DNA of 64,000 bases from a virus (taxonomy: Duplodnaviria; Heunggongvirae; Uroviricota; Caudoviricetes), in IMG/VR virus record IMGVR_UViG_2773857866_000003; one strand, 5' to 3'. Position numbers and translations under genes: made by a program. Below are positions 29,600 to 36,502 of the stretch, piece after piece. The number at the start of each line of letters is the position of its first letter. The stretch's first letter is position 1. Below the pieces are notes generated by a model. That model did not search any database. It had not been told where the DNA came from and was given only the letters and a program-made list of their open reading frames with translations.

Positions 29600-30574
29600 T
29601 TATTTAGAAGCTGGAGTTGTACCAGATGATACAATACGAACTGCACCATTTGCTTTAACTGTTTCAGATGCTAGTGTGTTCATTTTAGTATAAGCATCAT
29701 CTAACTTAGACTGTAATGTAGTTGTTTTACTTTCTTCCTGTTCTAATTTTTCTTCAAGCATAGAAACTTTGTCTTCCAATTTTGCAATTTCATATTCTTT
29801 TTCTTTTTCATACATGGTTTTCTTATAACCATACTCTTTTGCAGCTTCTTTCTGACCAAGTTCTTTTGCTTCTTTCTCAGCATTTGCAATCAATTCTGGA
29901 ATTTCTGCAACTTTTTCACGCAATCTTTCCAGTTCGTCTAATTTGCTTTCTGCTTCTACAAACATATTGTCAGCAGCCTCTTCCTTTGCATTTAAAACTT
30001 TTTCACGTTCTGCTTTTTCATCTTCCCATTTATCATTTTCAATCTTACGCTGACGTGTCAGATTGTATCCATACTCTTCTTCTTCACGTTGACGTTCCTG
30101 TTTTACTTTTGCAATTTCTTCTGCTCTCGCAGCTCTTACTTCTTCTCGCACGGAGTCTTTTTGAGAAATCAAGTCATCTAACTCAGCTTCATATACTTTA
30201 ATCAGCTCTTTGTGTTCAGCCATGAGTTTTTCTCTTTTAGCTTTAAATTCTTCCTCTAATTGATAGTCTTTTTCTTTAGCTGCATTAATAATAGCTGCCA
30301 GAGAAGATGCTTCTACTTCAATATCATATAATTCTTGCAATTCTTTCTGTTTATTTTCAATGGTTTCCATTAAGTCTTCGTACTGTCGAGTAATTTCATC
30401 ACTGAAAATATTGCTCTCTACAGCCTGAGCAGCATTTTCTTCAACCGCTACTTTTCTTTTATTTTCAGCCATATCCGCTGGCGTTTCTTTCATTTTCTGA
30501 ACTTCCTCTACTTTTTTCAATGCTTCTGAATATGCATCAAAAAGTTCCTGTTTCGTATTCTTCATTGTCAACAT
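29600..30574 (-). CDS. E/K-rich coiled-coil protein
   Basis: 324 aa with near-continuous heptad-like charged repeats. Confidence 0.45.
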   Translation of the reverse strand: MLTMKNTKQELFDAYSEALKKVEEVQKMKETPADMAENKRKVAVEENAAQAVESNIFSDEITRQYEDLMETIENKQKELQELYDIEVEASSLAAIINAAKEKDYQLEEEFKAKREKLMAEHKELIKVYEAELDDLISQKDSVREEVRAARAEEIAKVKQERQREEEEYGYNLTRQRKIENDKWEDEKAEREKVLNAKEEAADNMFVEAESKLDELERLREKVAEIPELIANAEKEAKELGQKEAAKEYGYKKTMYEKEKEYEIAKLEDKVSMLEEKLEQEESKTTTLQSKLDDAYTKMNTLASETVKANGAVRIVSSGTTPASK

Positions 30575-30708
30575 TTTTTAATTCCTTTCTTTTCTCTTTG
30601 ATTTTTTTATATATAGCAATGCCTTTATCTACAGCGAATGTAGCGGTCATTGTTCCTAGCAATACAATTACTGTATCCGTAAATACTTTTGCGAATTTTT
30701 CTTTCACT

Positions 30709-33137: not shown

Positions 33138-33884
33138 CTATTTATTCGCTAACCAATCTTTATATTGTCTCAAAAGCTCTGTATATAGCTGCTCATCATC
33201 TAATTTTGCAATATCTTTTACAGAGATAAACCCTGTATTATCATTCTCTCTGCCTTTCATGTCGTCCAAAGATTTCAGATATTTAAAATTATCATTTCCA
33301 ATTCCTACAAACTGGACAAATATGTTGTATGCGGATAATTCCCTGATAATGTCATTTGTTTTTTCTTTATCCCAGTTATCTCCATCTGTAATAAACATGA
33401 TAAATGCAGGAATTGTGCTAGGCTCAATATCTTTATAGTGATGAACCATACTTGTTAATACAGGTGCATATTCCGTACCTCCCATGCCCATACGTGCTTT
33501 CAACATTACTTTATCTACATAGTTTTCATAATTCTTTTCAGTAATAACTTCAAGTCTTTCTTCTCCATTTGAAAATAGCCAACATTCCAGTTCTTTATTA
33601 TCATCAAACCTCAAGGCAATAGGAAGAAGTCTTGTAATTACATCCTGTACTTTTCCTTCTCTAAATTCATCGCTCATACTTCCACTATAATCCATTGCAA
33701 CTGCAACTCTTGCCGTATGTTTTGTCATATCAATCTTGTTATCTTTTGACATGTTAATTAAAACTTTATTCAAATTCTCTTTTGACATATCAATACATAC
33801 TTTTTTAGTTTCCTGAGCTGGTGCACTATTGTGCCCAGACTCAGTTTCATTTTTATTTCCATTTAAAAAACTGAAAAATCCCAT
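33138..33884 (-). CDS. vWA-domain protein (TerY-like) with TerD-like N-terminal repeats
   Basis: MIDAS motif VAMDYSGSM, downstream FITDGD, and N-terminal IDMSKENLNKVLINMSKDNKIDMTK repeats. Confidence 0.6.
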   Translation of the reverse strand: MGFFSFLNGNKNETESGHNSAPAQETKKVCIDMSKENLNKVLINMSKDNKIDMTKHTARVAVAMDYSGSMSDEFREGKVQDVITRLLPIALRFDDNKELECWLFSNGEERLEVITEKNYENYVDKVMLKARMGMGGTEYAPVLTSMVHHYKDIEPSTIPAFIMFITDGDNWDKEKTNDIIRELSAYNIFVQFVGIGNDNFKYLKSLDDMKGRENDNTGFISVKDIAKLDDEQLYTELLRQYKDWLANK

Positions 33885-36502
33885 TATTTATTTCTCCTTT
33901 TCTTCATTGTTTTTCTAATAAAATCTGCTAACAGAACGATTGTGGATAATGCTGTTACTGCTAACCACTGAGTTAAGTTCAATGAAGCTGTATGTAATAC
34001 GCTTCCCCCAAACTGTACAAGAGCAATAGTTCCTACGAAAATCCCAATAGCAATTCGATAGAATAATTTATTCTTGCTTAATCCTTTAAACAGGTTTCTA
34101 CTATCTGTTCTAAGAGTAAAGCCATTTAATACCGCCATAAAGCAAAGTAAAGCAAATCTCGCTGATAATCCAGCGGCTTCAGTTGCAAATAAATGCTTAA
34201 TTGGACTAAAAATCATTAAACCAAACGCTAAAGAGAAGATACATGCGTTAATAGCAATATGTTTTTTACTTCCATTTACAAATAATCCTTCACCTTTCTT
34301 TAAAGGTTGTTCTTTCATATATTCATCTTTTGGAGGTTCACCACCAAATGATAAGGAGTTCAAAGAGTCCATAATAATGTTGATAATAAGAATAAGAGCT
34401 GATGTTAAGAAAGAGCCTGTTAAAAAGACTGGATATAAGAAGTTCATAGCAAGAAGTGAATAATTGATTGGCAACTGGAAATTCAAGAACATAAGAATAT
34501 TGTGCATAAATGTTCTTCCAAGTTTTACTCCTTTTACAATAGAAGCAAAGTTATCGTCTACAAGGATAATATCACCAGCTTCTTTTGCCACATCAGTGCC
34601 ACTATTCATGGCGAAACCAACGTCAGATTTTGTTAATGCTGGTGCATCATTTGTACCGTCACCTGTCATTGCTGTGGAATATCCAAGCTCCTGAGCTAAT
34701 GTAATAAGTCTCAATTTTGTTGTAGGAGAACATCTAGCAATAACTCTTAAACGTGGAATAATGTCTTTAATTTCTTCATCTGTCATTCCAGAAAACTCTG
34801 CATCAGTTAAAGCCATATCACCTTTTTCATAAATACCAGCTTCTTGAGCTACTGCAACTGCTGTTTCAATACAGTCTCCTGTAATTTCTACTACTGTAAT
34901 TCCAGCCTCTTTTGCTGTCTTAACAGCATCAGGAACTTCTTTACGAACTGGATCTTGTACTCCAATTACTGCTGTGAATACTAAATCTTCTGGTATTACA
35001 TTTTCCTCTAAAGCTTCCATATTGTATGCAAATGCAATACATCTCATTGCTTTCGTGGTAAGGTCATAGATTTCACTCAAGATATTTATTCTATCCTCAT
35101 CTGTCATTTCGACAATTTTCCCATTTTCTAGTCTGTATTTACAATTGGATAAAATCTTTTCAGGAGCACCCTTATAATAGGAAGTATCTCCAAACTCACA
35201 GCTTGTAGAAAACGCTGAATACTTAAATTGACTATTGAAAGGCTGTTTTTTAGATTTTGGGTTTTGAGTCAAAATAGAATTGAATTCAGATTGATTAAGA
35301 AGACTAAGCATTGCTCTATCTATTGAATTGCCACCAGTAATTTTTCCTTTTTCATCAAATAAGCTTCCGCTTGTTAAAGCTATATTTTCTTTAAGAATTT
35401 CTGGTAGATTATCTTTATTTATTTTTTGAGATTTCATGTCACCAGTAATAATTTCTTTTGGTGTCATAACACCTGTTGTCAATGTTCCTGTTTTATCTGT
35501 ACATACGTAATTCACATAAGCCAATTCTGGTATCTTTGAAGGATTTTTTGTAAGAATATTTGCCTTTTCCATTGTCTTAACATTCATTTTAGTAACAAAT
35601 TTTACAATCATTGGTAATCCTTCTGGTACAGCAGCTACAATAATTGTCAGGGCTACTGAAATGTTTTCAGCGATTGTTCTTATTATCTGTAACACATCTC
35701 CTGAAAAGTATTCTCTAAATCCAACTTCTAAGATACCTGTTGCTGTTGCGATTAAAAATCCTCCAAAGGCTGCCACTGTTCCCCATTTAGAAATAAAATC
35801 AGCTAACTTATCTAATGCAATATCTAAAGCAGTTTTAGTAGGCTCTAATGTTTGCATTTTTACCAGTGTGTCTCCATTGACAGTGTTAATACCAACTGTC
35901 TGTACTAACATTTTTGCTTCACCAGACATAACAGTTGTTCCGGCAAATACGCACGTTTCATCTGTATAATGGTCTGTAGTTATTTCTTCTGGATATTTAA
36001 ATCCTGAAATGTAATGTTTTTTACATTCTTTTGTTTCACCATTAATTGCAGCGTTACTTACAGCAATTTCACCTTCAACAATGTAACCATCTGCAAAGAT
36101 TTCCTGTCCCATTTCAAGACATATAATATCGCCAACTACAATATCATCTTTATTGATTTTTACAACAGAACCATTTCTAATTACATTACAATATCTAACC
36201 GCCGTTTTTGCTCTTAGACTATTATTTGATTTCTGTATTGATAGATTTGTTCTAACATTAATTCCACTCACAATTGCTAACACTGCTAAAATAATAACAG
36301 GCTCACTAAAACTTTCTACTCCTAGAAATGCAAGAGCAAAGAAAACTCCAGCCATCATGATTAGAATAATTGTGATTTTATCCTTTAATCCGTCTGTAAA
36401 AAAATTAAACCACGTCTTTTGCTTTGGTTCTGGCAGCTTATTGCTACCATATTTTTGTCTGCTTTTTTCTACTTGCTGGTCATTTAAACCATTCAAATTC
36501 AT
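33884..36502 (-). CDS. P-type cation-transporting ATPase (type II, Ca2+/Mg2+-like)
   Basis: Phosphorylation motif CTDKTGTLT, hinge motif TGDGTNDAPAL, and ~10 TM helices. Confidence 0.85.
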   Translation of the reverse strand: MNLNGLNDQQVEKSRQKYGSNKLPEPKQKTWFNFFTDGLKDKITIILIMMAGVFFALAFLGVESFSEPVIILAVLAIVSGINVRTNLSIQKSNNSLRAKTAVRYCNVIRNGSVVKINKDDIVVGDIICLEMGQEIFADGYIVEGEIAVSNAAINGETKECKKHYISGFKYPEEITTDHYTDETCVFAGTTVMSGEAKMLVQTVGINTVNGDTLVKMQTLEPTKTALDIALDKLADFISKWGTVAAFGGFLIATATGILEVGFREYFSGDVLQIIRTIAENISVALTIIVAAVPEGLPMIVKFVTKMNVKTMEKANILTKNPSKIPELAYVNYVCTDKTGTLTTGVMTPKEIITGDMKSQKINKDNLPEILKENIALTSGSLFDEKGKITGGNSIDRAMLSLLNQSEFNSILTQNPKSKKQPFNSQFKYSAFSTSCEFGDTSYYKGAPEKILSNCKYRLENGKIVEMTDEDRINILSEIYDLTTKAMRCIAFAYNMEALEENVIPEDLVFTAVIGVQDPVRKEVPDAVKTAKEAGITVVEITGDCIETAVAVAQEAGIYEKGDMALTDAEFSGMTDEEIKDIIPRLRVIARCSPTTKLRLITLAQELGYSTAMTGDGTNDAPALTKSDVGFAMNSGTDVAKEAGDIILVDDNFASIVKGVKLGRTFMHNILMFLNFQLPINYSLLAMNFLYPVFLTGSFLTSALILIINIIMDSLNSLSFGGEPPKDEYMKEQPLKKGEGLFVNGSKKHIAINACIFSLAFGLMIFSPIKHLFATEAAGLSARFALLCFMAVLNGFTLRTDSRNLFKGLSKNKLFYRIAIGIFVGTIALVQFGGSVLHTASLNLTQWLAVTALSTIVLLADFIRKTMKKRRNK

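Follow-up and report, generated by a model that had tools for sequence, protein, structure and literature searches.

A predicted Ca2+ pump, a vWA protein, TerD and a PspA-fold protein form a syntenic four-gene module in an SPbeta-like prophage of Blautia hansenii

The window analysed here is the whole 64,000-nucleotide stretch of the Caudoviricetes record IMGVR_UViG_2773857866_000003, and its positions 29600–36502 encode a P-type ATPase, a vWA protein, a TerD protein, a PspA-like protein, an SPFH/Band-7 protein and a coiled-coil protein. A preliminary description, made from the letters alone, had read these genes as one membrane-stress or Ter-like cassette inside a phage replication region. 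All six open reading frames (ORFs) were confirmed on the minus strand, consecutive, co-directional and with exactly the coordinates first given. They are tightly packed, with overlaps or gaps of 1–12 nt at the junctions, and two additional small transmembrane (TM) ORFs of 47 and 56 aa are intercalated between them (Table 1). PHROG families were assigned to all six proteins. The Pfam search placed four of the six above the curated cut-offs (Band_7/SPFH, TerD, vWA-TerF-like and a complete P-type ATPase), and the expected PspA_IM30 match fell below its cut-off, with support from the fold of the AlphaFold2 (AF2) model.

The arrangement was compared among 45 related loci from IMG/VR viral contigs (90–250 kb) and GTDB genomes, whose proteins are 51–76% identical to those of the window; six of the loci are partial, being cut by contig ends. 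The order ATPase, vWA, TerD, PspA-like is kept in 39 of the 39 complete loci, with gaps of at most 59 nt, despite flanks that vary between RNA ligase plus PNK, a 690-aa DUF8224 protein, RlaP, an HNH endonuclease and a CCA-adding enzyme. In contrast, neither the SPFH gene, nor the coiled-coil gene, nor the gene upstream of the ATPase, which we take to be TROVE/Ro60-like, adjoins the core in the sister loci, and in the same sister-phage contigs the coiled-coil homologues and the core are about 25 kb apart. The single six-gene cassette of the preliminary description is therefore two modules, a syntenic four-gene core and an SPFH/coiled-coil/small-TM cluster, which adjoin only in this lineage. Promoter and terminator scans of the window and of two related loci gave counts equal to those in shuffled sequence, so that operon boundaries could not be set. 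Motif conservation was used rather than dN/dS, synonymous sites being saturated at this level of protein identity; none of the catalytic, ion-site, MIDAS and TerD Ca2+-site motifs varies among these relatives.

Table 1. Positions of the core genes, the accessory cluster and neighbouring features in the window.
Feature	Coordinates	Strand	Basis or remark
Core gene 1: P-type ATPase, 872 aa, PMCA-like Ca2+ type	33884..36502	-	Pfam, NCBIfam, PDB
Core gene 2: vWA protein, 248 aa, TerF C-terminal/copine-like	33138..33884	-	PF10138, Copine
Core gene 3: TerD, 213 aa, single-domain	32484..33125	-	PF02342
Core gene 4: PspA/Vipp1-fold protein (ESCRT-III superfamily), 247 aa, N-terminal TM	31741..32484	-	AF2, Foldseek
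Accessory: single-pass membrane protein, 47 aa	31596..31739	-	called in source genome, translation verified
Accessory: SPFH/Band-7 protein, 296 aa	30709..31599	-	PF01145
Accessory: membrane protein, 56 aa, GTG start	30537..30707	-	called in source genome, translation verified
Accessory: elongated coiled-coil protein, 324 aa, phrog_29668	29600..30574	-	no Pfam; AF2 helices
RNA ligase	25854-27140	-	RNA-repair gene near cassette
PNK-HD	27317-28207	-	RNA-repair gene near cassette
HNH/NUMOD-type homing endonuclease gene	28274-29515	-
RlaP N-terminal stub ORF	29436-29603	-
DUF2828+DUF7788 gene	36499-38118	-	PHROG family
tRNA-like element	38159-38232	-
tRNA-like element, tandem	38237-38361	-	62-65-nt insert
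tRNA-like element, tandem	38370-38495	-	62-65-nt insert
YrlA match	38313-38423	-	Rfam, sub-threshold
tRNA-model match, 110 nt	38982-39091
ORF at window edge	63189-63995	-	PHROG reverse-transcriptase/polymerase families

The ATPase has the full Pfam complement (Cation_ATPase_N, E1-E2, hydrolase and Cation_ATPase_C) and a ten-TM architecture, in agreement with the complete P-type ATPase first proposed. Its best NCBIfam model is that of the PMCA-type Ca2+ pumps (TIGR01517, 499.5 bits, with an equivalog cut-off of 507.05), and the closest solved structures are Arabidopsis ACA8 (PMCA-type, E 1.5e-107) and Listeria LMCA1. The motifs DKTGT, PEGLP in TM4, N..MD in TM6 (as in PMCA) and the hinge TGDGTNDAPAL are all present and invariant across 33 ATPase relatives. 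The position of TGES reads NGET in the window ATPase and NGES or NGET in all relatives, including the distant contig L179 described below, and the catalytic Glu is kept. Ca2+ export by this ATPase is predicted from these features. In some sister loci a predicted TM ORF of 63–74 aa lies directly upstream of the ATPase (L012, 7133–7324; L024, 5683–5907); it is absent from the window, in which the ATPase start shares 4 nt with the TROVE-like gene instead. The small ORF recalls a 77–91-aa protein that is co-transcribed with the ATPase of jumbo gut (Jug) phages (PMC12880540).

The vWA protein matches PF10138 (vWA-TerF-like; E 7.5e-59, 199.7 bits against a cut-off of 29.4). Its second Pfam match is Copine (E 1.9e-10), and the plant copine BONZAI1 is its only sequence relative among the solved PDB structures. 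The MIDAS site (DxSxS, T, D) is intact and conserved in 31 sequences. The preliminary description had called this protein TerY-like with TerD-like N-terminal repeats, of which the vWA domain stood. The TerY label is ruled out by the PF10138 domain together with the lack of an adjacent kinase or phosphatase: no such partner of the TerY triad was found among the neighbour genes, and there was no PADLOC match. In place of the repeats, the N-terminus has one 14-residue motif resembling the TerD N-terminus, with a score that 5 of 2000 shuffles reached, and the Pfam scan found no TerD domain in the protein. The TerF arrangement, with TerD and vWA in one polypeptide, differs from that of the window, where TerD is a separate downstream gene; a split TerF, of which this protein is the vWA half, describes the arrangement best.

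TerD and TerF proteins are common in bacteria, on plasmids of pathogens and in large phages, and to our knowledge the mechanism of Ter proteins has been a puzzle for decades. The TerD protein of the window carries the domain expected from the first reading (PF02342, E 3.3e-35, 121.7 bits against a cut-off of 25.3) and aligns over its full length to Klebsiella TerD 2kxt (E 5.8e-24) and also to 3ibz. The Ca2+-site motifs DxDxD and GDNRTG are retained and conserved family-wide. Binding of Ca2+ by TerD is reported by Pan et al. 2011, as cited in PMC8123226, and ter operons have been linked to the inhibition of phages and to resistance against colicins (PMC8123226).

The fourth core protein was first described as PspA/IM30-like with a TM anchor, and this was borne out by the predicted fold and the conserved TM helix. 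Its PspA_IM30 (PF04012) match scores 25.5 bits against a gathering score of 33.9, the family profile reaches PDB Vipp1 at E 0.016, and some close relatives carry a precomputed PF04012 match. The AF2 model (mean pLDDT 77) has a TM helix at residues 2–21, a helical hairpin formed by residues 47–106 and 109–178, and two more helices. When the model was searched with Foldseek, the top 17 PDB matches were all Vipp1/PspA (E down to 9e-5), and it superposes on E. coli PspA 4whe with a root-mean-square deviation of 1.8 A. The TM helix and a cationic motif, TKxGKRxRxRAxGT, occupy the place of the amphipathic helix alpha0. RefSeq annotates a 228-aa form without the TM helix; the 247-aa form is favoured because the hydrophobic N-terminus and the cationic motif are conserved across the family. 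By inspection, the positive-inside rule would place the PspA domain in the cytoplasm. TM-anchored PspA-like genes with 28% identity are also found in a human-faecal phage contig (L172, 32944–37003) and in Bacillus phage G (L173, gp243–gp250). In both they adjoin ABC-transporter genes, which is another PspA-like/transporter pairing; the neighbour in the faecal contig encodes an NMT1-OmpA fusion protein, and those in phage G are annotated OmpA/MotB.

The SPFH protein was correctly recognised as a TM-anchored SPFH/Band-7 protein: it matches PF01145 (E 7e-26, 91.8 bits against a cut-off of 23.6), is prohibitin/HflK/C-like with weak HflK/HflC NCBIfam matches, and has a hydrophobic N-terminal TM segment and a C-terminal coiled coil. 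Its gene occurs in 259 related viral loci, ordinary-sized phages included. The 47-aa TM ORF begins 1 nt past the stop of the PspA-like gene and shares 4 nt with the start of the SPFH gene; in the sister phages an analogous TM ORF of 53–55 aa precedes SPFH, and one of 57 aa, whose counterpart in the window is the 56-aa ORF, follows it. In 31 other viral loci the coiled-coil gene stands next to an SPFH gene, in the order coiled-coil, small TM ORF, SPFH, small TM ORF. The coiled-coil protein belongs to a 109-member family, and its AF2 model consists of two very long helices (59–223 and 225–308), in keeping with its first description. It has no Pfam, PDB-sequence or fold match. The possibility that it is a second PspA was rejected by hhalign against the PspA-like family (probability 0.4%). 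Its homologue in phage G, gp268, lies about 23 kb from the PspA-like gene of that phage.

The cassette proteins have exact matches on the chromosome of Blautia hansenii DSM 20583 (CP022413.2, 3.07 Mb) and on many gut metagenome contigs. The YorL-type polymerase of the window, a split gene, is 49% identical to the polymerase of the Bacillus phages SPbeta, phi3T and SPR; judged from this similarity, the window belongs to a large temperate SPbeta-like prophage of this gut bacterium. Gene orientation is uniform over the entire window. In addition to the split polymerase, it encodes a primase, DnaB, an exonuclease and RNR as replication genes, and RNA ligase, PNK-HD, NAD ligase, a tyrosine integrase and an MrpR-like protein. 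Replication and RNA-repair genes are present on either side of the cassette (Pfam, PHROG), so that its placement inside a phage replication region was correct. The direct-repeat search around the cassette returned only tRNA-arm repeats and no att-like repeats bracketing the region. No cassette protein matched SPbeta, phi3T or SPR, and megablast of the cassette against deposited phages gave no match. The module sits in a variable accessory region whose flanking genes are swapped between loci. At the window edge, a further ORF matches PHROG reverse-transcriptase/polymerase families (E ~1e-10 to 1e-11).

More distant occurrences show which genes stay together. Contig L179, which is phage-like and 111 kb long, has no vWA gene. 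It encodes an ATPase 46% identical to that of the window, TerD in three copies and a protein of 253 aa that hhalign aligns with the TM-anchored PspA-like family (probability 99.9%, 34% identity). ATPase, TerD and TM-PspA are therefore the invariant trio, all three being kept in this lineage without the vWA gene. An adjacency of TerD and a Ca-ATPase also occurs in one contig of 59% GC. Contig L171, deposited as phage, has gene content that looks bacterial (TatD-, MoaB- and MetRS-like ORFs were read by eye); its Ter locus runs PRTase/TRSP, StiP-PELOTA, C-C lyase, YceG, TelA, three TerD and a P-ATPase.

When the ATPase was searched among 1.84 billion representatives, the phage family collapsed to one representative (58% identity). 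The next relatives outside the family are 39–49% identical and mostly unnamed metagenomic proteins, and one cellular clade is chromosomal in metagenome-assembled genomes of gut Alphaproteobacteria, without Ter or PspA neighbours. The PspA-like family was found in 4 of ~185,000 species-representative genomes by a pattern-based scan that missed the source genome and is of limited sensitivity; all four are gut Clostridia, with the full module where the sequence allows. Because of these distant relatives, the examined cellular clade without Ter or PspA neighbours and the few genomes, a recent capture from a host is not supported. PADLOC (PADLOC-DB v2), run on nine proteins, gave zero defence-system matches, and together with the same ATPase results this did not bear out the earlier suggestion of a defence or anti-defence island captured from a host. 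The tblastn matches of the ATPase in a phage collection were mostly unannotated multi-contig records, likely host-contaminated, and were left out as evidence. The doubtful "phage" records (OR846xxx–OR850xxx, AGRM01, AFYI01 and MT836648.1) are multi-contig sets or draft bacterial genomes, and MT836648.1 has gene content that looks bacterial. Since such records include bacterial-looking content, phage-database matches for host-like genes need checking.

The preliminary description had suggested a phage programme acting on host envelope stress or ion homeostasis, and this is kept as the best reading. We infer that the pump, TerD and the vWA protein are functionally coupled to PspA in the upkeep of the membrane: the four genes would be a Ca2+-linked phage module that keeps the membrane and the Ca2+ level of the host, a proposal to which we give about an even chance. 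The operon would be expressed from the phage genome alongside the co-oriented replication and RNA-repair genes. The pump would hold cytoplasmic Ca2+ low or reset it, and TerD, as well as the vWA protein through its MIDAS site, would sense Ca2+ at the membrane. The two might then couple the Ca2+ signal to the membrane-anchored PspA polymer, by which damaged membrane would be sealed or stabilised, and the host membrane would stay energised and intact during a long infection cycle or in the lysogen. The SPFH/coiled-coil/small-TM set could act as a scaffold, by analogy with the PspA-YdjGHI system of B. subtilis. A bolder and doubtful version takes pump, TerD, (vWA) and TM-PspA as a minimal phage system of Ca2+-triggered membrane repair, a counterpart of the eukaryotic Ca2+/copine/ESCRT-III pathway. 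TerD and the copine-like vWA protein would sense Ca2+ that leaks in through a membrane lesion, the anchored PspA would be recruited or activated to seal the lesion, and the pump would reset the level. If this is true, Ter proteins gain a biochemical role, that of Ca2+ sensing at the membrane.

Several points weigh against the Ca2+-linked proposal. Co-transcription is inferred from spacing alone, the promoter and terminator scans having yielded no more than shuffled sequence does. For PspA, the assignment draws on the fold and on weak sequence signals, and the RefSeq form is without the TM helix. The kinetics or the specificity of the ATPase (Ca2+ versus Mn2+) could differ, because its PMCA score is below the cut-off and NGE(S/T) replaces TGES throughout the clade. 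For the scaffold, the SPFH gene stands next to the PspA-like gene only in the lineage of the window, and by inspection with the positive-inside rule the SPFH domain may face outward, unlike the cytosolic YdjI.

The main rival is lysogenic conversion, in which the module would be cargo that serves the host rather than the lytic cycle, by Ter-like resistance to tellurite or metals, pore-forming bacteriocins, antimicrobial peptides or superinfecting phages. It is possible, and clearly less probable than the Ca2+-linked proposal. Classical ter operons make bacteria resistant to tellurite, phages and colicins (PMC8123226), the element is temperate and SPbeta-like with its integrase and MrpR-like genes 6–8 kb from the module, and the accessory region with its swapped flanks would suit such cargo. 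However, the module is contiguous and co-oriented with the replication and RNA-repair genes and has no evident promoter or terminator of its own, and TerB, TerC, TelA and the biosynthetic genes of resistance-conferring ter loci were not found in the cassette and its neighbours. The presence of the module in only 4 of ~185,000 species-representative genomes in the pattern-based scan also speaks against it, as does the high transcription of the Jug-phage counterparts in gut metatranscriptomes (PMC12880540), where the phages may or may not have been replicating lytically.

Counter-defence, a mechanistic sub-case, is unlikely as an explanation in its own right. The module would block abortive-infection effectors that permeabilise the membrane or admit ions, or the phage PspA would act as a decoy for defences that use host PspA. 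A CBASS cyclase is indeed held on PspA in Bacillus (PMC11153139), and the module stands repeatedly beside genes for RNA ligase/PNK, Pnkp/Hen1-like proteins, RlaP or CCA-adding enzyme, which are typical counter-defence cargo. This evidence is one of context, whereas PADLOC gave zero matches and no homology to known anti-defence proteins was seen, and mechanistically the idea overlaps the Ca2+-linked proposal rather than excluding it.

That independent accessory genes came together by chance, without joint function, is very improbable for the locus as a whole. For the core it is largely refuted by the 39/39 synteny at 51–76% identity between variable flanks and by the retention of ATPase, TerD and TM-PspA in the 46%-identity lineage. 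It stands for the SPFH and coiled-coil genes, which in sister phages are separated from the core by about 25 kb, and for the TROVE-like gene, which belongs with the Y-RNA-like elements and the RNA-repair genes. Finally, the view that this DNA belongs to the host chromosome or to an island of non-phage origin, which the origin of the window from a 3.07-Mb bacterial chromosome might suggest, is refuted by the PHROG replication genes on both sides, the SPbeta-like polymerase, the recurrence of the module in 90–250 kb IMG/VR viral contigs and the absence of bracketing repeats from the direct-repeat search.

RNA-repair genes occupy both sides of the cassette (25854–29603 and 36499–39659, both on the minus strand), a Ro-like gene among them. 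In the sister phages the core likewise abuts genes for RNA ligase plus PNK, Pnkp/Hen1-like proteins, RlaP or CCA-adding enzyme, and this proximity may reflect a link in function or simply a hot spot of accessory genes that they share. Right after the coiled-coil gene, a short ORF holds an N-terminal stub of the RlaP nucleotidyltransferase (22 aa, 91% identical). RlaP is intact at the same position in sister prophages, and in the window the homing endonuclease gene has displaced the remainder of it.

The Ro-like gene is the DUF2828+DUF7788 gene, whose stop overlaps the ATPase start and whose PHROG family is annotated 'RNA-binding protein'. Directly upstream of it lie tRNA-like and YrlA-like elements. 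Two of them stand in tandem with intact acceptor, D and T arms and with the insert in place of the anticodon loop; a third tRNA-like element lies beside them. The Rfam YrlA (Y RNA-like) match is sub-threshold, with 32.5 bits against a gathering score of 69. Three to four tRNA genes were also detected (Met, Gln and Met, plus the 110-nt tRNA-model match). Gene and elements together are a candidate phage Ro/Y-RNA system.

The four-gene core shares parts with several known systems and differs from each. The bacterial ter and yceCDEFGH-type Ter stress systems (TerD, TerF, TerC, TelA), reportedly treated by Anantharaman, Iyer and Aravind in 2012, have in common with the window TerD, a TerF-type vWA protein, a membrane cation-transporter component and an all-helical membrane-associated partner. 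Compared with bacterial ter loci, the window has a P-type pump in the place of TerC and a PspA-fold protein in that of TelA, and TerF is split. TerC, TerB, TelA, YceG and PRTase/StiP/lyase genes were not found among the cassette genes and their neighbours, where alone TerB and TerC were looked for; queries with TelA, YceG, StiP, PRTase and lyase against the entire window gave no match either. The bacterial-looking contig L171 ends its Ter locus with a Ca-type P-ATPase, as in the pairing of the window.

Ter genes are not confined to bacteria. The preliminary description had held full P-type ATPases and TerD-TerY-type modules to be rare in phages. Ter-like genes are not rare there: deposited phage records contain vWA-TerF-like proteins in 286 cases and TerD in 31. 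Ca2+ P-type ATPases of gut phages have been published (PMC12880540). The cultured jumbo Acinetobacter phage ME3 has a cluster of vWA-TerF-like, a TerC/DUF475 membrane protein, TerD and then PRTase/HAD genes. As in the window, vWA-TerF-like and TerD genes flank a membrane protein, and the TerC-family protein of ME3 holds the position of the P-type ATPase. Unlike the window, ME3 has TerC/DUF475 and PRTase/HAD genes and no P-type ATPase, and no PspA-annotated gene lies within ~6 kb of its TerD. Caulobacter and Brevundimonas phages also carry Ter-type genes, annotated 'tellurium resistance'.

In B. subtilis, an SPFH protein and two membrane proteins bring PspA to the membrane (PMC8581546). The pspA-ydjGHI (samGHI) operon resembles the window in that PspA is followed by genes for membrane proteins and an SPFH protein, the order in the window being PspA-like, small TM, SPFH, small TM. 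The likeness is one of gene layout, specific to this lineage and missing in sister phages. The phage PspA-like protein has its own TM anchor, and the phage SPFH protein has an N-terminal TM segment, whereas YdjI is cytosolic.

In eukaryotes, Ca2+-triggered membrane repair proceeds by recruitment of ESCRT-III through copines, annexins or ALG-2. The parts encoded in the window follow a matching logic: TerD would supply the Ca2+-binding beta-sandwich, the vWA protein the copine-type domain and the PspA-fold protein the ESCRT-III-family polymer, and the PMCA-type pump would restore low Ca2+. The parallel goes no further than analogy, and TerD is not a C2 domain.

The nearest published case is that of the Jug phages, which encode a Ca2+ P-type ATPase, as do a few Bacillota phages (PMC12880540, Sci Adv 2026). 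The Jug-phage ATPase is highly transcribed and paired with the 77–91-aa protein, unlinked to TerD/PspA; of the three terD genes, all highly transcribed, one stands beside a pspA-like gene (PMC12880540). Compared by description, the Jug phages and the phage of the window are both gut phages with a full Ca2+ P-type ATPase, TerD and a pspA-like gene. In the Jug phages, however, ATPase and terD-pspA-like genes are at separate loci, whereas the phage family of the window, temperate and SPbeta-like with hosts among the Clostridia, has them packed into a single tight operon. Both the Ca2+-ATPases of gut phages and a terD-pspA-like operon apart from them were published in 2025–26, and the pump-vWA-TerD-PspA operon seems undescribed. 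The recent finding of phage Ca2+-ATPases in uncultured jumbo phages of Bacteroides is thereby extended to temperate SPbeta-like phages with clostridial hosts, and the hypothesis of Ca2+ sensing and membrane protection is directly testable in the cultivable B. hansenii DSM 20583 with its inducible prophage. The four genes reduce the Ter proteins to a small set tied by strict synteny to a predicted Ca2+ pump and an ESCRT-III-type membrane remodeller, and supply a genomic link between the pump and TerD/PspA, which published work had treated as separate.

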